A DNA stretch of 17,949 nucleotides, from contig CAYFHS010000049.1 in assembly GCA_964342815.1 (NCBI GenBank), forward strand, positions 1-17,949, written 5' to 3'. Positions 397 to 17,589 of this stretch are shown piece by piece. Both the position numbers and the translations under genes were made by a program. Origin of the DNA: an uncultured archaeon. GTDB lineage: Archaea; Thermoplasmatota; Penumbrarchaeia; JASLWR01. The notes beneath the pieces are model-generated. The model saw only the letters and a list, made by a program, of their open reading frames with translations, searched no databases and was not told the DNA's origin. Each line of letters opens with the position of its first letter. Within the stretch, counting starts at the first letter, position 1.

Positions 397-3204
397 TCAG
401 GTCAGATTCCCTTTATTATCTTCTTTCTGTTCCTCTAAAAACCAGCAAGTTCTTTTTTCAATATTTTCCGACCTTACCTTACCGAGATCGAGAAGATTGT
501 TCAGGTGATATCGAACGGTACGGGATTCCCTGTCGAGCTTCACCGCAAGCTCCTTTATCTCGATACCAGACTGTTGTTTTACTATCTGAATTATTTCCTT
601 TTGTACCGGAGTTAGAGGTTTTTGCTGGTCTCTCATCCACGTGGGGTAATAAAATTTGAAGTTTCCCTGCTGTTTTGCCTTGATGAGATTTGCATTCGTG
701 AGGCAACGTAAGTGATGCGTTAGAGTACCCTGAGAGACCTTCATGTGTTTTTTGATCTTCCTGAAATGCTTCCCTGGATTATGATTGATATACGCGTAAA
801 GATTGTGCCTTATATCGTTGTCGAGAATCTGTTTCCGTTTTATCCGGGTATAAGCCATCAGGCAGGCAAGTATTACCAAAGAAATCAATATGACTACTGA
901 AAAGATTGTGAAAATACTCGTCCCTTCCTGCTTCCACCTTTTTGGATCACGTGGAAAGGCATCATCCTCATTAGGTACTCCGTCACCATCCCAGTCAAGA
1001 GGCGTTGAAAGAGGGTCATAAGGGTCGCTGCCCTGTTCAAGCTCATAGGTGTCGTTGTAAGTGTCGTTATCGGTATCCTTTTCTCCGTCGGAAGTGGATG
1101 TTTCGTCGTCTTCCGGTCCGCTTCCGGGGTATGATAACGGATTAAATGGATCGCTTCCCTGTTCTAGTTCATAAGTGTCGTTGAAGCTGTCATTGTCTGA
1201 GTCGATTTCTTCCAGTGGGGATGAATCAAGTACCGTGACGTTCAGAGTATCGAATCCCCGGTTCTCGGCTTCATCGTAGACGGTCATTGTAACAGAATAA
1301 TTACCGGGAATATCAAACTTGAAAAAGGGTAACGATGACATGATTATCGAATGGAACAGCATCTGATTCGCATCGTCATATTTAAAAGTCCAGGTCCAAT
1401 TCCAGCATCCGATGTTATCGGAACTGTCCTGGTGGAAGAAGAATTCTACCGTATCGGATTGGTTGATGGTTATGTCAGGGCCTGCGTAGGCGAAGGGGGG
1501 TGTGCTGTCGAGAACGGTGACGTTCAAGGTGTCAGTGTCCCAGTTAGCGTCAGCATCTGAGACTTTCAGTGTTACAATATATTTTTCGACCTTATTGAAT
1601 ATATATTCCGTTGTGATTCCATATCGATATATCTCCTTTTGCCCGTTGAAAAAACTCCACGTGTAATTGACTATGCCTACATTGTCAAATGACTCATTTG
1701 CATTGAAATAGGCATTTTCATGTTGATCTATAATGATGTCCGAACCCGCTTCTGCTATCGGAAAAACATTATCCTTAACAATAACAAATATCCTATCACT
1801 TGTTCCTTGTCCACATTCATTTTCTACAGTCAAAGTGACAATGTATTTTCCAAAAATATGAAAAGCGAAAATTTGTTCAGGTCCATATAAAAACTGTTCT
1901 TTCCCATCATAAGTGAAATTCCAAGCATATTTGACAATATATTCATGACCAACACACGCTGAACTATTAAAAATCACATTTTCATGTTGAATTACAGTTA
2001 TATCGGGACCTGCATTGGCAAGGGGTATGGGTATACGATTTGGATTGGTCATCGGAAAGATATCTTTCGATCCAGCCGAACCCCCTATTACATACGGTTG
2101 ATCCACAATCCCATCTATATTTATGTCCGGCCCTGTCCAATCAGACCAATAATTACCAATTAGATCTTTATTCCATTTGTTTTTAGTTCCATTATCAACT
2201 GCTTGGACATTACCATAATTATTATCAATAAAAATGTTGTTAAAAATTATGTTATCATGAGTATTGTTATGGAGCATTATGCCATAGTTGATGTTAGACC
2301 TGCATTTGTTTTTTGTAAAGACGTTGGCATGACTCGAATGGCTTATACCATTGTATAAGGAAATGCCATAATTATTTAGAGAACATGAATTATTGATGAT
2401 TTGGTTATTTGCAGAGTTCGATGAAGAGATTCCTTCACCATCATTCAAATCACATTTATTATTAGTAATTATATTAAGATCGGAATAACTAAATGAAATA
2501 CCCTCAAATTTATTTGAATTGCATGTATTTTTAGAAATAATGTTGTCGTTTGAGTAATAAAATGATATTCCATTCCTGTAATTATTGTTACAAGTATTAT
2601 TGCTGATATGGTTATTGTGAGAATACTGTACGTAGATGCTTTCATCATTATTGGATAGTATATTGTTCTCGATAGTATTGTTATTAGAATATTGAAGGTA
2701 GATACCAAGACCCTCATGAAGGGAGACATTCGTCACATTATTTTTCTCAATTCGGCAATGGTTTGCATCCTTCAATAGAATGCCATACATTATTGCACTG
2801 CCTCTTGAGTAAGATTTTACCGAAATCCTAAATCCAATGAATTTTACCCTGTTTGCATTAATCAAAACAGCAACATTTTCTCCCAGATAAGGAGAGGGAT
2901 AATTAATCACTGTATTCTGATAATCTGTGCTTATTAAATCTAATTTTTTACTGATGGTAATATTCTCATAATATGACCCCGCCTCAACATAAATCGTATC
3001 CCCATCACTGGCGTTGTCTATCGCCCACTGAATATGTGTGTAATCCCCGCCTCCCGACGCATTCACAAATATTGTGCTACCTCTTACTTCGTCACCATAT
3101 TCCCCTTGGCCAGGCCACCGTTTGCTCTCTGTTAATCGAGGAACCGTTATAATCATTAAAAATACAATAACGATCGTTAAACATCTTTGCATGATCCGGC
3201 CCAT
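397..3204 (-). CDS. Membrane-anchored NosD/CASH beta-helix + 3 PKD + acidic TSP3-like repeats + TM + tandem winged-HTH protein (COG3398-like C-terminus)
   Basis: N-terminal hydrophobic signal; VNASGGGDYTHIQWAIDNA start of the beta-helix; Asn-rich parallel beta-helix repeats; three PxAxAGxD...YxWxF...GxYxVTLxV PKD repeats; DSDNDSFNDTYELEQGSDP repeats; TM IFTIFSVVILISLVILACLMAY; two wHTH units (NPGKHFRKIKKHMKVSQGTLTHHL and SGIEIKELAVKLDRESRTVRYHL). The start could be Met at 3192. Confidence 0.85.
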   Translation of the reverse strand: MGRIMQRCLTIVIVFLMIITVPRLTESKRWPGQGEYGDEVRGSTIFVNASGGGDYTHIQWAIDNASDGDTIYVEAGSYYENITISKKLDLISTDYQNTVINYPSPYLGENVAVLINANRVKFIGFRISVKSYSRGSAIMYGILLKDANHCRIEKNNVTNVSLHEGLGIYLQYSNNNTIENNILSNNDESIYVQYSHNNHISNNTCNNNYRNGISFYYSNDNIISKNTCNSNKFEGISFSYSDLNIITNNKCDLNDGEGISSSNSANNQIINNSCSLNNYGISLYNGISHSSHANVFTKNKCRSNINYGIMLHNNTHDNIIFNNIFIDNNYGNVQAVDNGTKNKWNKDLIGNYWSDWTGPDINIDGIVDQPYVIGGSAGSKDIFPMTNPNRIPIPLANAGPDITVIQHENVIFNSSACVGHEYIVKYAWNFTYDGKEQFLYGPEQIFAFHIFGKYIVTLTVENECGQGTSDRIFVIVKDNVFPIAEAGSDIIIDQHENAYFNANESFDNVGIVNYTWSFFNGQKEIYRYGITTEYIFNKVEKYIVTLKVSDADANWDTDTLNVTVLDSTPPFAYAGPDITINQSDTVEFFFHQDSSDNIGCWNWTWTFKYDDANQMLFHSIIMSSLPFFKFDIPGNYSVTMTVYDEAENRGFDTLNVTVLDSSPLEEIDSDNDSFNDTYELEQGSDPFNPLSYPGSGPEDDETSTSDGEKDTDNDTYNDTYELEQGSDPYDPLSTPLDWDGDGVPNEDDAFPRDPKRWKQEGTSIFTIFSVVILISLVILACLMAYTRIKRKQILDNDIRHNLYAYINHNPGKHFRKIKKHMKVSQGTLTHHLRCLTNANLIKAKQQGNFKFYYPTWMRDQQKPLTPVQKEIIQIVKQQSGIEIKELAVKLDRESRTVRYHLNNLLDLGKVRSENIEKRTCWFLEEQKEDNKGNLT
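1003..1205 (-). repeat. Intragenic duplicated acidic Ca-binding-like (TSP3-type) module
   Basis: DSDNDSFNDTYELEQGSDPFNPLS and DTDNDTYNDTYELEQGSDPYDPLS; the DNA copies are diverged mostly at synonymous sites. Confidence 0.8.
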
Positions 3205-9383: not shown

Positions 9384-12300
9384 ATGAAAAAGTCTGTAAC
9401 TATTACCTTGATTTCTATTCTATTACTCCAGATGTTTACAGGGTTATTTGTGAACTCCGAAGAATCGGATGTGACCTTTGTTACAACTGTCGGGAACGAT
9501 GATGAACATGAGTTTGAGGAAAGGGCAAACAAGGAGGAGAAGCAGGATAACCGTACTGAACAGGATGAGTTCGGCGGGAGTTGGTTTGATGATTTCGAAG
9601 ATGATACGGGGGTGGAGTGGAAGAGAAATGTTAGTGTTGGAAATGAACATGTTTTATTGAAAACTGGAATCGGAGAGGACCTAATTATAAATGGGACTAG
9701 TAGAACACTAAGTGGTGTGAATTATTATGATAATATCGAAATTATAAATGGAGGTATTCTTTATTCACAAGTAAACACATCTTCCACCATTATCGCCTCA
9801 TCTATCACAATAGATGGAACTTCCAAAATAAATGTTGATGGACGAGGCAGGCCAGGAGGTGTTGGGGGAGGGGGTGGATATGGTGATGCGGGTGAGAAAG
9901 GTGGAGCAGGAAATGCAGGTTCCACAGGGGGGGATGGGGGTGTTTCATATGGCTCCTCCACATCGAATACGATACAGATAGGTTCTGGCGGTGGAGGTGG
10001 GAGTGGGGGGGAAATGGGGACTGGAGGTAATGGTAGTCGTGGTGGTGGTAGTATAATTATGCATGCAGAGGAAATAACTATTATGGGGGCAATAGAGGCA
10101 AACGGCGCGGACGGAGATTCTGGGACTTTAGTGGGTGGAGGTGGTGGGGGAGGTAGTGGTGGGGGATTATTACTACACGGGAAGAATATTCAAGGAACTG
10201 GATCTATCTCTGCAAATGGTGGAGATGGAGGCCCACCAGCAAATCCAACTCCTAGTCATGGTGGACCTGGTGGTAAGGGAAGTGGTGGTAGGGTGAAAAT
10301 ATTTTATGAAAAGATTCAAAATATTAATGATAATATACAAGTCAATGGTGGAAATACCGGTACAATTCATACACAATTAACAAATTATGTGAATTTACTT
10401 CCCTACTTAACAAGGGGTTCAATCCTTTCAAGGATTATTCAACTCCCTAACAACTATCATTGGTCCTATATTTCACTGGATAAAACCGAACCTGCCAACA
10501 CATACATCAATGTATCCGTCATCAACAACGCTAACAATCAAACCATCGTAGGCTTCGACAACCTCACAAATCGCACCATTGATCTCTCCGCCCTGAACGA
10601 TCAGAGTATAACTACCATTCGTCTTAAAGCCTATTTCTCGGGAAATGGCAGTGCTACCCCATCACTGGACTCATGGAGCGTGGAATGGACGGCTGAGAGC
10701 GCCTGGAAAGATAGTTTTATAGGGAACGGGAAGTGTATTTATCCAATAGATGTTGATGAGCACACAGTAGGGTATTGGAAATTTGAGGAAGGGAATGATA
10801 ATGTGGTAAGAGATTGGAGTGGCGAGGGGAATGATGGGATGATCAATGGATCTAATTGGGGTGATGGGAAATATGGTAGAGGATTGGAATTTGACGGAGT
10901 TGATGATTATGTGAGAATTCCAGACAATGATCGTCTCGATGGTTGTGCCGAGATAACTATCGAAGGGTGGATTTTTCCGAAAAGTTCCAAAAAAATGGAT
11001 GTAATTAGAAAAGGTGATGGTAGTGGTTTAGCTTATCTATTACAATTCGATTATACAGGAATGGATTTAGTGTTCCAATTAGGTAGATCGGGCTATCCAA
11101 AAGTTAAGACTACTATACCAAATTTATATACGTGGTCCTATGTTGTTGGGACTTATGATGGATATTTTTTAAAAATATATGTGAATGGAATTTTTAAAGC
11201 TTCCAAAAGCGCCAATTTAATAATTCAGAATAGTCCCATGGACTTGTTTTTTGGTGCCGCAAATGGAGGCTCAAATTTTCTAAACGGTACTCTCGATGAA
11301 GTCCGCATTTCTAACATTGCCCGCACTTCTGAAGAGATCCGCAAGGCATACCAAATTGGCATCGAAATTCGAGGTGGGCATGTACAGTTGGGGGATAATG
11401 AGATCGTACCGGATGATAATACCTCTGCTTTGTGGCATTTCAACGAGGGTGAAGGTAATTTGCTGGATGATTCGAGCGGGAATGGTAATGAGGGGGTTAT
11501 ACATGGGGCTAATTGGACTGATGGAGTGATGGGTGGAGCGTTGGAGTTCGATGGAGTGGACGATTATGTTAATTGTGGGAATAGTGCAAGTTTGGATATA
11601 GGAACCGTTCATACTATTGAAGCTAGGATTAAACTTAATAATAAAGATAATGTCGTCTTATTAACCAAGAAAGGTTCAAATAATGATTATTCTCATTATT
11701 TTTTTGACGATAAAATTTACTACAAAGTAGGGATTGAAGAGCCAGTAACCGTTGATTGGGATTATACACTTCCCATGGTCGAATCTCATCATGTAGTTAT
11801 CACAAGGTCTGAAACCTCAGTTGATTTCTACATTGACGGTGAGCAACAAGGAAGGACTCAGACATTGTCAGCAAATAATCCTGCACGGTTTGATTTTCTA
11901 TCTGGATTTGACGCTGGTGGCATATATGTAAAGGGCATCATAGATGAAGTTGCCATCTACAAACGTGTCCTAAACGAATCCGAAATCCGCACCCACGCCA
12001 ACCAATACCGTTATAATTCCACTCTGCGATCCAGGAACATCACAGCCCCTGAAAACCAAACGTGGAACACTTTCCACTGCAATCGTACCGTCCCTGACAA
12101 CACCTACCTCAATATCACCATCTATGACGCAAAAACGAATGAAACACTTTTGACGGAATACAACCGCACGGATAATCCCTACATCGATTTGTCCGGCATC
12201 GATCCTGTCAAACATACATCCATTTACCTCCAGGCATACTTCCAATCTAACCGCACCCAAACTCCCATTCTCTACGATTGGGCCGTAAACTGGACAAATG

Positions 12301-15014
12301 CAGAAGAAGTTATTCGCCCACCCGAATTATATGAAAATATCCCGAACATATCATTCCTTGAAGATTCGAAAGGACCAAATGAATTGAACCTTAGCAATCA
12401 CTTCCAGGATGTCAACGATCCTATATCTCTACTATCTTTCACCTTACTACGCACCGAAGGACAGAATATAAACGATACTATCGACGGGACTATGGTATCT
12501 TTTAGATCGAATACTGCCAACTGGTCGGGCAGTGATATGTTCAAGGTCATATGTTTAAACGAATTCAACAAAACCATAGAATCAAACGAATTCAATGTGA
12601 CAGTGATTCCGGTTGATGACCGCCCGATGTGGAAGCAGCACATTCCTGACATTGTCATTACAGAGGATAACAGCTCCGAACCCATCAATCTCTCCGAACT
12701 TGTTGAGGATGCTGAGGACGATCCCTTCGATTTTACTTTCTCTATAAATGGTACGGGGGTAGGTATCAATATCTCTCAGGGGAGTATGATAGTAATATCT
12801 GACAAAAACTGGTTTGGTGTCCTCACAGTGGAAATGACTGTATATCAAGTATCCAATTCGTCACTCAATTCCACCACATCGTTCGAGGTGAATGTCAATT
12901 CTGTTAACGATCTGCTGAACACACATCTAATATACCCTGAGAACGGTAGCGCATTTAACTCAAGGGAAGTCACCCTAAACTGGTCGGGCAGTGATGTTGA
13001 TGATCCCGTTGAAAACCTTCGATATTTCGTCTACATATCGAAAGATTTGGATCCGGTAGTCTCAAAGAGTGAATCGGTTAGATTACCAACGAATAATACT
13101 AGCATCACAATCGAGTTGGACTACGGAACTTATTACTGGACTGTTGTCGGATTTGATGGGGCTGATTTAGGTATATGTACAGATGGCTATTACACGTTCA
13201 ATCTTACAAATGTCTCGATTCCGGAAGTAGAACTGAGATCACCAACAGATAACTCAACGGTAAATATTCTCTATGCTATTTTGAAGTGGAAATCCCTTGA
13301 CACCGATGGTATCTCTTACATCCTATACTTTGGAAATTCAAGTGATGAACTGAAGATGATTGCAGAACTGAACGGATTTGAATATGAAATATCTGGTTTA
13401 GTGAACGGCGAGACTTATTATTGGAAAGTTTGTGCAAAGGTGAACAATATTACCGGTATATGCACTTTTGGAATCTGGGCTTTCACCGTTGATACGGCAT
13501 TCGAACCTAGTTATCTCATCGAGGTGAAAATAGATACACTTGAACTTGAAATCACTCAAGGGAAGGATATAAAATTCAAGCTCAACATCTCGAATCTTGG
13601 AAATATGGAGTCGTTTGTTACGATAAACGTATCCGGTTCCTTAAAAGATTTGGTTGATCTTACCAATAATCTAAATCTGGCACCCGGTGAGTTTTCTAAT
13701 ATTACTGTGACGATTGACTCGTCTGCGTTGGATATTGGGAGTTATGATTTAATGATCAAATTCGATTATCTTGGAGGGGCCCAAAATTTACCGATTACCC
13801 TTAAAGTCATATCGGGAAAACCAATCGAGGATGACGATACTGATCGCAGTGAGGATGAAGGATTATCTAGCACGTCAATAGGATTGATAATTGGGGGAGT
13901 TCTCCTCGCTTTGATCGTAATTATTTTGGTATTCATCGTACTCCGTAAAAAGAAAAAAGAGAAGGATGAACCTGCTCAATTGGAGAGGAAAACCGGGATT
14001 CCCCAAGAAGCGACTGAGCCTATGGTTACAGCGTCTGTATCTACACCTCCCCTTACTCCTCTAAGCCCAAACCAATATTTTCCAAGCCCCCAGGTTCAAG
14101 TGCTGGAAACTCCCACTATAGCCATACAAACGGCTGTTGACGAAAGTGGAATGCTTCCACAACCACCTACAGAAATGGTACCTCCGTTTGTCATTGAGCC
14201 GACTCTACCGGAAATCCCACCTGAAACACCACCTCAACCTGAAAGCACGCCTGAAGTAGAAGTATTGTTACCTCCTTCAGCACCACCCCTTACTGATCCC
14301 ACAATTCCTGCATTGCCACCTGAACCGAAAATCGCTACCGGTACTTACAAGGACTATATTTCCTCTGAAACCTCATTTCAACCGGTTACAGCCACTCGGA
14401 TCAACATCGTTCCAAATTATACAATGACGCACAAGATCGGTGCGGGAGGCTTTGGAACGGTCTACAAGGCATTCCACGTAAGCGGGAAGAACGTTGCCAT
14501 CAAACTCCCAAAAATGCTCGATGAAACTATAGATGTTTCAGTGCTTCAGAAGTTCAAGGAAGAAGCAGATATCTGGAGAAAGTTACAGCACAGGAACATT
14601 GTCGAATTTATTGATGGAAATATAATTCCCTGTCCCTATCTCTCCATAGAACTAATGGAAGGTGGAAATCTCAAGCAGCTCGTCTCTAAGTATCAGCTGA
14701 ATATAGGTGAAGCGGTCTTTATCATGGCACAGATACTCGATGGTATGTCTTTTGCCCATCGGATGGCTACTATACACCGGGATCTGAAACCCGAAAATAT
14801 ATTATTCACGAAGGATGGCATCCCGAAGATCAGCGACTGGGGTATAGGGAAGTTCATGGGTTCCATGAGCACCGAGAAGACCATGGGCATGAAGGGTACT
14901 ATGCTATATTCCGCCCCGGAACAGATCAGTAAGGCAAAGTTCGGACAAGTAGACTGGACAACGGACATAAAGTGCCAACGCCCATTTCCGCTTCCTCATC
15001 TGTCCGTATTCTAG
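9384..15014 (+). CDS. Giant receptor-like Hanks-type Ser/Thr kinase (Gly-rich domain, 2 LamG, cadherin/Ig-like and FN3-like repeats, TM, Pro-rich linker, kinase); kinase C-lobe truncated at about 14969
   Basis: Signal peptide; GGxGG-rich block; two LamG units (VGYWKFEEG...GLEFDGVDDYV...GTLDEVRIS and SALWHFNEG...ALEFDGVDDYV...GIIDEVAIY); PVDDRP/VNSVND repeats; TM IGLIIGGVLLALIVIILVFIVLRKKKK; GAGGFG, VAIK, HRDLKPEN, DWG, YSAPEQ. Homology stops at VDWTTDI; the last 14 residues come from antisense archaellin DNA. Confidence 0.9.
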   Translation: MKKSVTITLISILLLQMFTGLFVNSEESDVTFVTTVGNDDEHEFEERANKEEKQDNRTEQDEFGGSWFDDFEDDTGVEWKRNVSVGNEHVLLKTGIGEDLIINGTSRTLSGVNYYDNIEIINGGILYSQVNTSSTIIASSITIDGTSKINVDGRGRPGGVGGGGGYGDAGEKGGAGNAGSTGGDGGVSYGSSTSNTIQIGSGGGGGSGGEMGTGGNGSRGGGSIIMHAEEITIMGAIEANGADGDSGTLVGGGGGGGSGGGLLLHGKNIQGTGSISANGGDGGPPANPTPSHGGPGGKGSGGRVKIFYEKIQNINDNIQVNGGNTGTIHTQLTNYVNLLPYLTRGSILSRIIQLPNNYHWSYISLDKTEPANTYINVSVINNANNQTIVGFDNLTNRTIDLSALNDQSITTIRLKAYFSGNGSATPSLDSWSVEWTAESAWKDSFIGNGKCIYPIDVDEHTVGYWKFEEGNDNVVRDWSGEGNDGMINGSNWGDGKYGRGLEFDGVDDYVRIPDNDRLDGCAEITIEGWIFPKSSKKMDVIRKGDGSGLAYLLQFDYTGMDLVFQLGRSGYPKVKTTIPNLYTWSYVVGTYDGYFLKIYVNGIFKASKSANLIIQNSPMDLFFGAANGGSNFLNGTLDEVRISNIARTSEEIRKAYQIGIEIRGGHVQLGDNEIVPDDNTSALWHFNEGEGNLLDDSSGNGNEGVIHGANWTDGVMGGALEFDGVDDYVNCGNSASLDIGTVHTIEARIKLNNKDNVVLLTKKGSNNDYSHYFFDDKIYYKVGIEEPVTVDWDYTLPMVESHHVVITRSETSVDFYIDGEQQGRTQTLSANNPARFDFLSGFDAGGIYVKGIIDEVAIYKRVLNESEIRTHANQYRYNSTLRSRNITAPENQTWNTFHCNRTVPDNTYLNITIYDAKTNETLLTEYNRTDNPYIDLSGIDPVKHTSIYLQAYFQSNRTQTPILYDWAVNWTNAEEVIRPPELYENIPNISFLEDSKGPNELNLSNHFQDVNDPISLLSFTLLRTEGQNINDTIDGTMVSFRSNTANWSGSDMFKVICLNEFNKTIESNEFNVTVIPVDDRPMWKQHIPDIVITEDNSSEPINLSELVEDAEDDPFDFTFSINGTGVGINISQGSMIVISDKNWFGVLTVEMTVYQVSNSSLNSTTSFEVNVNSVNDLLNTHLIYPENGSAFNSREVTLNWSGSDVDDPVENLRYFVYISKDLDPVVSKSESVRLPTNNTSITIELDYGTYYWTVVGFDGADLGICTDGYYTFNLTNVSIPEVELRSPTDNSTVNILYAILKWKSLDTDGISYILYFGNSSDELKMIAELNGFEYEISGLVNGETYYWKVCAKVNNITGICTFGIWAFTVDTAFEPSYLIEVKIDTLELEITQGKDIKFKLNISNLGNMESFVTINVSGSLKDLVDLTNNLNLAPGEFSNITVTIDSSALDIGSYDLMIKFDYLGGAQNLPITLKVISGKPIEDDDTDRSEDEGLSSTSIGLIIGGVLLALIVIILVFIVLRKKKKEKDEPAQLERKTGIPQEATEPMVTASVSTPPLTPLSPNQYFPSPQVQVLETPTIAIQTAVDESGMLPQPPTEMVPPFVIEPTLPEIPPETPPQPESTPEVEVLLPPSAPPLTDPTIPALPPEPKIATGTYKDYISSETSFQPVTATRINIVPNYTMTHKIGAGGFGTVYKAFHVSGKNVAIKLPKMLDETIDVSVLQKFKEEADIWRKLQHRNIVEFIDGNIIPCPYLSIELMEGGNLKQLVSKYQLNIGEAVFIMAQILDGMSFAHRMATIHRDLKPENILFTKDGIPKISDWGIGKFMGSMSTEKTMGMKGTMLYSAPEQISKAKFGQVDWTTDIKCQRPFPLPHLSVF

Positions 15015-15036
15015 CTTTCGCTCTGTCTCTGTTCAT
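14968..15036 (-). pseudogene. arlB: 5' stub of a second archaellin gene (class III signal peptide + first residues of the mature N-terminus)
   Basis: ATG at 15036 gives MNRDRAKARIRTDEEAEMGVGTL, matching the intact neighbour MDRRKVIRQIRKDEKGSMGVGTL. SD GAGGGA at 15047-15042. The frame then enters antisense kinase DNA and stops at 14928-14926. Absent from the ORF track. Confidence 0.85.
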
Positions 15037-15161: not shown

Positions 15162-15170
15162 TATATAAAA
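15162..15170 (-). promoter_or_regulatory. Putative TATA box of the second archaellin gene
   Basis: TTTTATATA on the minus strand, 126 nt above the ATG at 15036, implying a leader of about 100 nt. Confidence 0.55.
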
Positions 15171-15215
15171 CACGGTTCAATTCCAACCCCTCCTAATCAG
15201 CGAAAATTATGAGAT

Positions 15216-15304
15216 GTGGTTTTCAATAGATTATATGAAAAGTGGTTTTCAATAGATTATATGAAAGGTGGTTTTCAATAGATTATATGAAAAGTGGTTT
15301 TCAA
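15216..15304. repeat. Spacerless tandem repeat, 26-bp unit x 3.4 (GTGGTTTTCAATAGATTATATGAAAA)
   Basis: Copies at 15216, 15242 (last base G), 15268 and a partial copy at 15294-15304. The unit carries an internal TTTTCA...TGAAAA inverted repeat. Confidence 0.95.
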
Positions 15305-16353: not shown

Positions 16354-17118
16354 TTAGAGAATCGTCGAGAACCTATCGACGTAAGTGGACGGCATCGTCA
16401 CTTCGATCAGCGTGGGCACGCCGTGTTTGGGGATCATCTTTATGGTCAAATGTCCCTGGTTCTCCAGAGTAAGTCCGGTTGCGTTGGCATTGATGAAAAG
16501 GGTTACCAATGTACCCGAAGTCATGATGCCTCTATCAAGGAATGCAGCGTGCTCTGTGGGATCCATTAGGAGCTGGCATGTGTAACGGTACGTCAACACA
16601 TCCGTTTCGCCGAAAGGAAGACCACCGTCCTGGTAATCCCAGGCTCCGTTTCCCTCTATGTGATTGGGATCATCGCCGGCATGATGAGACCAGTTAGAGG
16701 TATCGTTCGAATTATAAGAGAGCGAAAGGGATTTGAAACCGTCTGAAACATCAATGATTGTCCGATCCATTCTGATCGGTTCGGAACCCGCACGCAGCTT
16801 GACCTTCAACATCAGGGTCTGTACTGTGGGCGCCTGGTTCGTGCTCCTGTTTCCTGCAGGTCCCCAAGAGGTAGCATTAGTACCAATGATTCCTCGGTCA
16901 CCAAGAACGGTGATAACGTTGAAACCAGTCGATACGTCCTCTCTGGCGATCATACCTGTATGAAACGCCTTCATCTTCAGCTGGTCTACGGTGGTTATAA
17001 TAACCATTGATGCTACTGCAGCCACCAGGATCAACGCAATGAAGGTGATCAAAGTGCCGACTCCCATACTGCCTTTTTCGTCCTTTCTTATCTGACGAAT
17101 TACCTTACGTCTGTCCAT
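16354..17118 (-). CDS. arlB: Archaellin (archaeal flagellin), 254 aa
   Basis: Start moved from 17226 to the ATG at 17118 (SD GGAGGG at 17130-17125). Class III signal RKDEKG/SMGVGTLITFIALILVAAVAS; LMLKVKLRAGSEPI; C-terminal IKMIPKHGVPT; several N-x-S/T sequons (NAT, NRS, NDT, NWS). Confidence 0.95.
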   Translation of the reverse strand: MDRRKVIRQIRKDEKGSMGVGTLITFIALILVAAVASMVIITTVDQLKMKAFHTGMIAREDVSTGFNVITVLGDRGIIGTNATSWGPAGNRSTNQAPTVQTLMLKVKLRAGSEPIRMDRTIIDVSDGFKSLSLSYNSNDTSNWSHHAGDDPNHIEGNGAWDYQDGGLPFGETDVLTYRYTCQLLMDPTEHAAFLDRGIMTSGTLVTLFINANATGLTLENQGHLTIKMIPKHGVPTLIEVTMPSTYVDRFSTIL

Positions 17119-17124
17119 GTTTTT

Positions 17125-17219
17125 CCCTCCAGTGTAATAATACACTATTATTAGGTGTGAGAGAGGGCCTCCCGAGGCATCCTCGAAAGGCGGGTTCACA
17201 GGGCTTTTGTGACTCTCTC
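17125..17219 (-). promoter_or_regulatory. Structured 5' leader of arlB: three-way junction + AT hairpin + SD (riboswitch-like candidate)
   Basis: P1 GAGAGAG/CUCUCUC; P2 UCACA-AAAGCCC-UGUGA; P3 GCCUUUCGAGG-AUG-CCUCGGGAGGC (11 bp, with two G-U pairs that only form on the mRNA strand); UAAUAAUA-GUG-UAUUAUUA hairpin before the SD. Confidence 0.65.
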
Positions 17220-17241
17220 GAAACATAGATTAGTTTAATTC

Positions 17242-17258
17242 TTTATAAATATGTTCTT
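17242..17258 (-). promoter_or_regulatory. BRE/TATA promoter of arlB
   Basis: Minus strand AAAGAACA-TA-TTTATAAA (TATA 17249-17242); the expected start site near 17220 coincides with the first base of the structured leader. Confidence 0.65.
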
Positions 17259-17589
17259 TTAAATGCCCATCATGCTAACGAAACCAAATAATTACTCTGT
17301 GAAATCGTATTAAATTATCATATTTCTTATCGCGAGATAATATCATTGGTTAAGGATTAACTGATTTATTCAGACAGTATTCACTCATCGATTACAATGC
17401 CACGAAAAAAACCTTTGAATTCATTGATTAATGGTCTCGATACGTAATCAGAGCTTTTTTTGTGCGAAGAAAAATCATTTATGTAACCGGAGAATGATAA
17501 GGAGATTTGTAAACAGGAAATGATACATTCGTTGATTTTAGCAAATGGGAATGATATGTAATAAAAAAGTACGAAAAAAAGAGAGGAGA

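Follow-up and report, generated by a model that had tools for sequence, protein, structure and literature searches.

The question raised by this locus is whether the leader of the archaellin gene arlB1 is a riboswitch-like element that turns translation on, as the original prediction proposed, or a structured RNA of another kind. For the motility genes of archaea, hardly any control other than by transcription factors (EarA, ArnR and similar) is known, and a 2021 review of archaellation contains none of the words "UTR", "untranslated" and "riboswitch" and only hints at post-transcriptional control (PMC10117864). No archaellin leader element of this kind was found described in the literature. 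The window, i.e., the whole stretch of 17,949 nucleotides that was analysed, comes from an uncultured marine archaeon of the Thermoplasmatota, and the DNA sequencing runs containing this locus are marine and seawater metagenomes. We describe here a new structured leader motif, which has a narrow distribution and is duplicated in sense and antisense orientation.

The arlB1 locus and its promoter

The features of the leader and its surroundings are collected in Table 1. Orthologous leaders were obtained from 13 contigs and reduced to 7 distinct leaders, namely that of the window and six further ones from metagenomes and one related genome. The sample is thus confined to one uncultured family and comprises 7 sequences of the arlB1 leader (type 1) and 7 of a second leader described below (type 2). 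In each orthologous contig long enough to show it, arlCDE1 is the gene next after arlB1; in the window, it lies downstream with a gap of 22 nt.

Table 1. Features of the arlB1 locus and of the type-2 leader of the same genome (window coordinates except in the last line).
Feature	Position	Strand	Remarks
arlB1, archaellin, 254 aa	16354..17118	-	PF01917, E 3e-21
arlCDE1, ArlC/D/E-family protein, 295 aa	15444..16331	-	PF04659
Promoter ACATATTTATAAA	17242..17254	-	contains TATA box TTTATAAA (17249-17242)
Predicted transcription start, G	17219	-	about 26 nt downstream of TATA centre; inferred from promoter geometry
P1 5' strand, GAGAGAG	17213..17219	-	7 bp with CUCUCUC; unvarying in 7 lineages
P2 hairpin: UCACA, loop AAAGCCC, UGUGA	17196..17212	-	5 bp; unvarying in 7 lineages
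J2/3, ACCC	17192..17195	-	second base C/A/absent
P3, 11 bp, loop AUG, two G-U pairs	17167..17191	-	four junction-proximal pairs unvarying
J3/1 (17166; C/U/G by lineage) and P1 3' strand CUCUCUC (unvarying)	17159..17166	-	
Variable linker, 7-12 nt	17148..17158	-	not alignable across lineages
Pre-SD hairpin: UAGUGUA, loop UUAU, UACACUG	17130..17147	-	3' arm ends on first G of the Shine-Dalgarno sequence (SD)
SD, GGAGGG	17125..17130	-	6-8 nt before AUG; GGAGGU in three lineages
Type-2 leader, own genome (G000, contig C20)	L131:1481-1640	-	also L124, L126, L134, L137, L139, L142

The promoter 11-mer ACATATTTATA is unvarying across all 13 orthologous contigs, and the spacing from the TATA box to P1 is constant in the same contigs, with no indels, while the bases in between vary. 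Because the TATA centre of archaeal promoters usually lies near -26/-27, the start of transcription was placed at G17219, and on this geometry it would coincide with the first base of P1. The arlB1 leader is then 101 nt long, with the AUG at 17118-17116. An upstream open reading frame, or an N-terminal extension of arlB, from ATG 17226 was considered and rejected, since its frame matches arlB in the lineage of the window only. This ATG precedes the predicted start, is out of frame in the related genome G003 and is ATA in L049, and therefore the conserved stretch of the leader is regarded as non-coding. A leader peptide was also rejected because the substitutions have no bias toward third codon positions.

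Several other features of the window were recorded as observations in their own right. The promoter region before the second archaellin of the window carries the motif GGAATTGAACCGTGTTTTATATA at 15162-15184 (-), which is found with at most one difference before both archaellins of contig C14 of the same genome and before the second archaellin of L044; it is likely a shared regulator site or promoter and differs from the arlB1 promoter. Just upstream of it, 15208-15304 is occupied by 3.7 tandem copies of a 26-nt unit with 94% matches, which may be an array of regulator binding sites. The second archaellin, starting from ATG 15035 (-, about 14968-15035), reads MNRDRAKARIRTDEEAEMGVGTL, after which the archaellin sequence is lost, and the point of loss is the end of a convergent gene for a 1876-aa protein with a kinase domain (9384-15014, +). 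At the orthologous position of L044, a gene was called at 222 aa, running off the stretch examined; the break in the window is either a truncation or an assembly join. A 935-aa protein encoded at 397-3204 (-) has beta-helix/NosD and PKD domains and a C-terminal winged helix (HVO_0163-type HTH, MarR/ArsR-like), so that extracellular-type and DNA-binding modules are combined in an unusual way.

Fold and conservation of the leader

The coordinates and pairings of the predicted junction (P1 of 7 bp, P2 of 5 bp with the loop AAAGCCC, and P3 of 11 bp) proved to be right and equal to the minimum free energy (MFE) structure of 17100-17222 (-), which has -39.9 kcal/mol and z = -3.07 in ViennaRNA RNAfold. 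The 61-nt core (17219-17159, -) folds alone with -29.5 kcal/mol and z = -4.08 and makes up 71% of the ensemble, and none of 200 dinucleotide shuffles folded as well. The opposite strand of the core folds more poorly (z = -2.1) because the G-U pairs of P3, which had been predicted to form on the mRNA strand only, turn into A-C there; since these pairs form only on the mRNA-sense strand, selection is placed on that strand.

In each of the 7 lineages, the junction is the leader's own MFE structure, together with the pre-SD hairpin, and the core has z values of -2.9 to -5.4 and occupies 55-71% of the ensemble. Of its 61 columns, 49 are unvarying, including the whole of P1, P2 and the P2 loop, and all 12 variable columns sit in distal P3, in the P3 loop or at two junction positions. 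Starting 5 nt before P1, identity is unbroken up to and including the base of P3, except at the second base of J2/3, and on the 3' side GAGGC-N-CUCUCUC, where N is the J3/1 base, is again unvarying in the 7 lineages. Fourfold-degenerate sites of arlB1, used as a neutral yardstick, are 33-45% identical in the more distant pairs, i.e., near saturation, and measured against them the leader is under strong purifying selection. Two short contigs from four DNA runs, in which part of the junction is uncovered, are identical to the window and show no variants.

Covariation among the arlB orthologue leaders, proposed as a check of the structure, was found in P3 and in the pre-SD hairpin, and P1 and P2 were unvarying. 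In the consensus structure, which RNAalifold reproduced, 96.9% of pair cells are standard pairs, as against 33-71% when the partners are slid. Within P3, two pairs have changed on both sides (37:45 from A-U to G-C and 39:43 from G-C to A-U), three show a compatible one-sided change (U-G to C-G, U-G to U-A and C-G to U-G), and in one clade one position is mismatched (U-C or C-C). Of 500 column shuffles, 12 reached the covariation score; with 7 sequences and about two independent double changes, the covariation of P3 is modest, supportive but thin. Since P1 and P2 never vary, thermodynamics is the sole basis for their pairing. The pre-SD hairpin is present in all seven lineages in three compensating versions (xAGUGUA/UACACUx, GGUGC/GCACC and CCAGUGU/ACACUGG), with A-U to G-C and U-A to C-G changes around a GUG/CAC core, and in six of the seven its 3' arm reaches as far as G number one or two of the SD. 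The leader thus has this fold, conserves it and compensates at the RNA level in P3 and the hairpin, and we are confident, short of certainty, that it is a real selected RNA structure.

The element has a narrow distribution. Among 40 related genomes, an ArlB1 orthologue was found in one, i.e., G003, which belongs to another genus of the same family and has 78% identity, and a large protein collection added six clusters of ArlB1 orthologues with 77-89% identity, the next matches all being at 42% or below. A covariance model of the core gave strong matches at two type-1 loci only in 37 genomes of the class, an exact 20-mer search of genome contigs gave the G003 contig only, and viral contigs had no match to the element. 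When an ArlB alignment was compared with metagenome contigs, 485 stretches matched and none was related. A degenerate pattern allowing any P2 stem had 65 metagenome matches, all by chance, none with a complementary P2 or a downstream CTCTCTC. The element was found in a single family, with one or two loci per genome.

How the leader would act on translation is a separate matter. The predicted ON switch depended on CCCUCU (17167-17162), which is indeed perfectly complementary to the SD GGAGGG (17130-17125). The form in which this anti-SD is paired with the SD lies 6-11 kcal/mol above the junction in all seven lineages, so that mutually exclusive folds of comparable stability, by which a riboswitch is judged, were found in none of them. 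The junction is the dominant fold without ligand, and a self-contained, ligand-driven translational ON switch is not supported. The J3/1 base (17166; C/U/G) and the last SD base (G/U) vary without compensation, and because of this the 6-bp anti-SD helix shrinks to 4-5 bp in three lineages; CUCUCUC is able to pair with GGAGG in every lineage. With the P1 5' strand blocked, CUCUCU paired with the SD in a stack with the hairpin in three lineages, that of the window and the two closest to it, and this pairing was not seen in the remaining lineages of the seven. Since the leader is not a balanced two-state switch, P1 would need active opening, and a latent anti-SD role of CUCUCUC is possible in the case that a trans factor opens P1.

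Two further parts of the proposed switch have to be revised. The 8-bp AU hairpin supposed to bridge anti-SD and SD occurs only in the lineage of the window, is absent from the MFE structure and is not conserved, and AGUGUA/UACACU, taken for an alternative fold, is in fact the conserved pre-SD hairpin, present in the MFE structures of all seven lineages. The statement that no consensus of the c-di-GMP-I/II, c-di-AMP, FMN and TPP riboswitches is matched agrees with Rfam 15, which also covers the purine, SAM and ZTP riboswitches and the hammerhead and gave 0 matches at gathering thresholds over the whole window; with E up to 10, there were four chance matches to snoRNA and TMV models in 17000-17400 (13-17 bits), none of them on the junction. 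What is kept of the riboswitch-like reading is a compact 5' three-way junction matching no Rfam family, and the ligand-driven switch is the part that is not supported. A hammerhead or other ribozyme core was rejected, having no Rfam signal, and so was an RNA thermometer of the ROSE or fourU type, since the pre-SD hairpin occludes no more than one or two G at the start of the SD, whose mean unpaired probability is 0.39-0.68 in six of the seven lineages. Inspection of the seven leaders by eye gave no conserved cis pseudoknot partner for GCCC of the P2 loop, neither GGG in P3 nor that in the SD being conserved, and the window sequence has no U-tract terminator downstream of the junction.

A reverse-complemented copy in the arlCDE2 leader

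A block of about 27 nt from P1-P2, corresponding to the P1 5' strand, P2 and J2/3, recurs, reverse-complemented, in the leader of another archaellum operon within the same family. This operon has arlCDE2 (219 aa), followed by a gene for an archaellin-domain protein of 630-670 aa. The type-2 copies read GAGAG(A/G)-UCACA-AGCCC-UGUGA-A(A/C)CC on the strand opposite the adjacent operon, and therefore the arlCDE2 mRNA carries the reverse complement. Their first trace was given by weak matches of the core covariance model beside another archaellum locus in G001 and G003, and a pattern search of 401 genomes of the phylum caught the hairpin in the window's own genome, on contig C20, where the covariance model had missed it. 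Pattern matches in G007, G064 and G096 are without the flanking sequences and were taken as chance.

By following ArlCDE2 orthologues down to 44% identity, we obtained seven distinct type-2 leaders, and all seven have GG(G/U)UUCACAGGGC..UGUGA(U/C)CUCUCAGGAG directly before the start codon. The type-1 sequence GCCCUGUGAA is unvarying in all seven lineages and the type-2 sequence UUCACAGGGC in six of seven, the seventh having a C to U change that still allows pairing with G. This change, in L139, is the only pairing-neutral substitution in a type-2 stem, and it keeps the pairing on the mRNA strand only. The loop of L142 is the 7-nt loop of type 1 in reverse complement with one extra base. Among the copies, TCACA and TGTGA are spaced by 7, 5 or 8 nt, and the spacer core GCCC is unvarying.

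The type-2 leaders have a fold of their own. In all seven lineages, CUCUCAGG, in which part of the SD lies, matches CCUGAGAG as a perfect complement at codons 4-6, where synonymous positions are fixed, and every type-2 MFE structure contains the 8-bp CUCUCAGG/CCUGAGAG helix enclosing the SD and AUG. By itself, this helix is also a candidate hairpin for turning translation off. A mirrored three-way junction in these leaders was rejected, as its energy exceeds that of the MFE structure by 6-13 kcal/mol. A conserved palindrome is also present at about 100-130 nt upstream of the start of arlCDE2, TATCAAATCTGATA, followed by TAAATAT(C/T)AC (L131, L124, L126, L134-L142; alignment A6, columns 40-75); this region resembles a transcription-factor site with a TATA box, and two TATA-like boxes are present.

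Both types occur in G000 and G003, and they were also found together in the same JGI samples; G001, which is 93% complete, has type 2 only, and neither type was found in G002 by the covariance-model and pattern searches. A phase-variable invertible switch was rejected because each orientation is fixed at its own locus, all 13 type-1 contigs having one orientation and all 10 type-2 contigs the other, and contigs of the same strain from other runs, with partial coverage, gave no orientation variants. The conservation of both sense and antisense leaves three kinds of reader: a factor that reads double-stranded DNA, a factor that reads a palindromic RNA stem, or the two leaders reading each other. 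The inverted copy agrees no less with a factor recognising double-stranded DNA than with one recognising RNA.

Candidate readings and known systems

Our best explanation, to which we give a probability of only about 0.42, is that the arlB1 leader is a constitutively folded cis-regulatory RNA recognised by a putative trans factor. The leader would consist of two modules, a 61-nt junction at or within a few nt of the 5' end and a hairpin abutting the SD, and the unvarying surface of P1, P2 and the junction would be a recognition site for that factor and not a small-molecule pocket. Because the P1 3' strand can pair with the SD, closure of P1 would leave the SD accessible; in this default state the junction would keep CUCUCUC off the SD and cap the 5' end, and the message would be translatable and stable. 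If a factor opened P1, CUCUCUC would be released and could pair with GGAGG in a stack with the pre-SD hairpin, which would lower translation. The candidates for this factor are a protein and the complementary leader of the second archaellum operon.

The block may, on a reading we consider unlikely, be a DNA operator, in which GAGAG-TCACA-N5/7-TGTGA-AMCC binds a repressing transcription factor downstream of both TATA boxes and the RNA folding of P1 and P2 is incidental. Archaellum control known in Euryarchaeota and Sulfolobus is transcriptional, by EarA and ArnR (PMC10665913, PMC10117864), and the block occurs in both orientations at two archaellum operons, downstream of related promoters (ACATATTT...), has a perfect palindrome TCACA/TGTGA as its centre, and keeps P1 and P2 unvarying without covariation. 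However, the half-site spacing differs by 2 bp (N7 versus N5, and N8 in L142), a difference seldom compatible with a dimeric factor, the spacer or loop GCCC is conserved as much as the half-sites, and type-1 invariance reaches the base of P3 and CUCUCUC at +49 to +61. The covariation of P3 and the pre-SD hairpin, with strand-specific G-U pairs, argues for RNA-level selection on the same leader, and the C to U change of type-2 L139 preserves pairing only on the mRNA strand. The TGM operator of the TrmB family is TATCAC-N5-GTGATA; a palindromic operator of this type, with fixed spacing and a less conserved spacer, was rejected, the spacing here varying among 5, 7 and 8 and the GCCC core being unvarying.

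The conservation of both a sequence and its complement would be directly accounted for by antisense pairing between the arlB1 and arlCDE2 leaders, which are complementary over about 21-27 nt and could pair from a loop-loop contact of GCCC with GGGC. Such pairing would open P1 of arlB1 and let CUCUCUC mask the SD, would also perturb the helix enclosing the SD and AUG of the arlCDE2 leader, and would couple the two filament modules or make them exclusive. The block is unvarying in all seven type-1 leaders and in six of the seven type-2 leaders, the seventh still pairing, and G000, G003 and shared JGI samples contain both types. When both leaders of a genome were cofolded, 17-18.5 kcal/mol were gained relative to the separate folds in all three matched pairs, and type 1 flipped to the SD-paired form, although these energies are not independent evidence because any inverted homologous block yields such complementarity. 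We hold this reading to be quite improbable, as type 1 was not found in G001 (93% complete), which has type 2, the type-2 loop varies in length with no matching change in type 1, and part of the block is tied up in another helix in the MFE structures of type 2. If true, the mRNAs of two filament/switch-complex modules would switch directly through each other, and neither a small RNA nor a protein dedicated to this task would be involved.

To a riboswitch for a small molecule or ion, in which the ligand stabilises P1, the anti-SD stays sequestered and translation is on, we assign the same low probability. The layout is aptamer-like, with unvarying junction-proximal helices and loops and a covarying distal helix, CUCUCUC could pair with the SD in every lineage, and flagellar operons of bacteria offer a precedent (C. 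difficile c-di-GMP-I, flgB). With a 7-bp P1 and a junction more stable by 6-11 kcal/mol, however, the fold would form without ligand, the extended anti-SD pairing is not maintained, and Rfam gave no match even at E up to 10. A small-molecule aptamer is also hard to reconcile with the P1-P2 block recurring reverse-complemented in another leader, because the type-2 copy keeps the sequence and cannot keep a ligand pocket, and the junction is not favoured there. For a metabolite sensor, it is unusual to be found in only one family and at no more than one or two loci in a genome.

The least probable reading is a purely structural 5' cap, in which the terminal helix and junction would serve solely to protect a plentiful filament mRNA against exonucleases that attack from the 5' end. 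In its favour, the fold has high stability, P1 starts directly at the predicted +1, leaving no single-stranded tail, and its distance from the TATA box is fixed; among bacterial mRNAs, ompA and aprE are stabilised by 5'-terminal stem-loops, and 5'-3' exonucleases, RNase J for example, occur in Euryarchaeota. Against it, a stabiliser needs structure and not sequence, 34 consecutive nt including a 7-nt loop are unvarying where neutral sites are saturated, and the inverted copy is left unexplained.

Being conserved beyond its protein and showing RNA-level covariation, the arlB1 leader would give archaellin genes their first candidate for a cis-regulatory RNA and would be among the few structured leaders known in Thermoplasmatota. 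The pair of leaders poses a question testable in vitro without culture, i.e., whether RNA-RNA pairing, a DNA-binding factor or an RNA-binding factor is at work.

Among known systems, the add adenine riboswitch (purine, RF00167) is alike in having a three-helix junction in a 5' UTR and a P1 3' strand complementary to the SD. It differs in that the archaeal leader has no covariance-model match, has a variable P3 loop of 3-5 nt with no pair of equal loops, possesses a long and stable P1 for which ligand is not needed, and has a reverse-complement copy in another leader. The flgB leader of Clostridioides difficile contains the c-di-GMP-I riboswitch Cd1 and the invertible flagellar switch, and it shares with the present case control elements in the long 5' UTR of a motility-filament operon and a segment flanked by inverted repeats that exists in two orientations. 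Unlike it, the arlB1 leader has no RF01051 match and no terminator, its repeats are only 7 bp, and each orientation is fixed.

The DNA motifs of archaellin promoters, i.e., those of EarA (TACATA-type) and the inverted repeats of ArnR and ArnR1, are likewise short and conserved. EarA sites lie upstream of BRE/TATA, and the arlB0 leader of P. furiosus is 30 nt (PMC10665913). The arlB1 block, in contrast, is in the transcribed leader, extends over about 30-60 nt and has RNA-level covariation. Antisense control starting from kissing loops is established for CopA/CopT and RNA I/RNA II, and the present leaders resemble these in that the GC-rich loops of two stem-loops (GCCC and GGGC) are complementary, as are sequences beyond the loops; they differ in that the putative partners are two mRNA leaders at different loci and not a cis-encoded antisense RNA.

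In bacteria, FljA acts on fliC mRNA. Flagellin translation is also controlled by CsrA-FliW via the 5' UTR of hag/flaA mRNA (PMC4894983). Both are cases of post-transcriptional control of a major filament subunit with a structured leader next to the SD, as would be the case for arlB1. We know of no homologues of CsrA, FliW or FljA in archaea, and in contrast to CsrA targets the arlB1 leader is without a GGA-in-loop motif, and the recognised surface would be a junction and hairpin far from the SD. Protein-mediated control through flagellin 5' UTRs is most likely the functional analogy that applies to the arlB1 leader.
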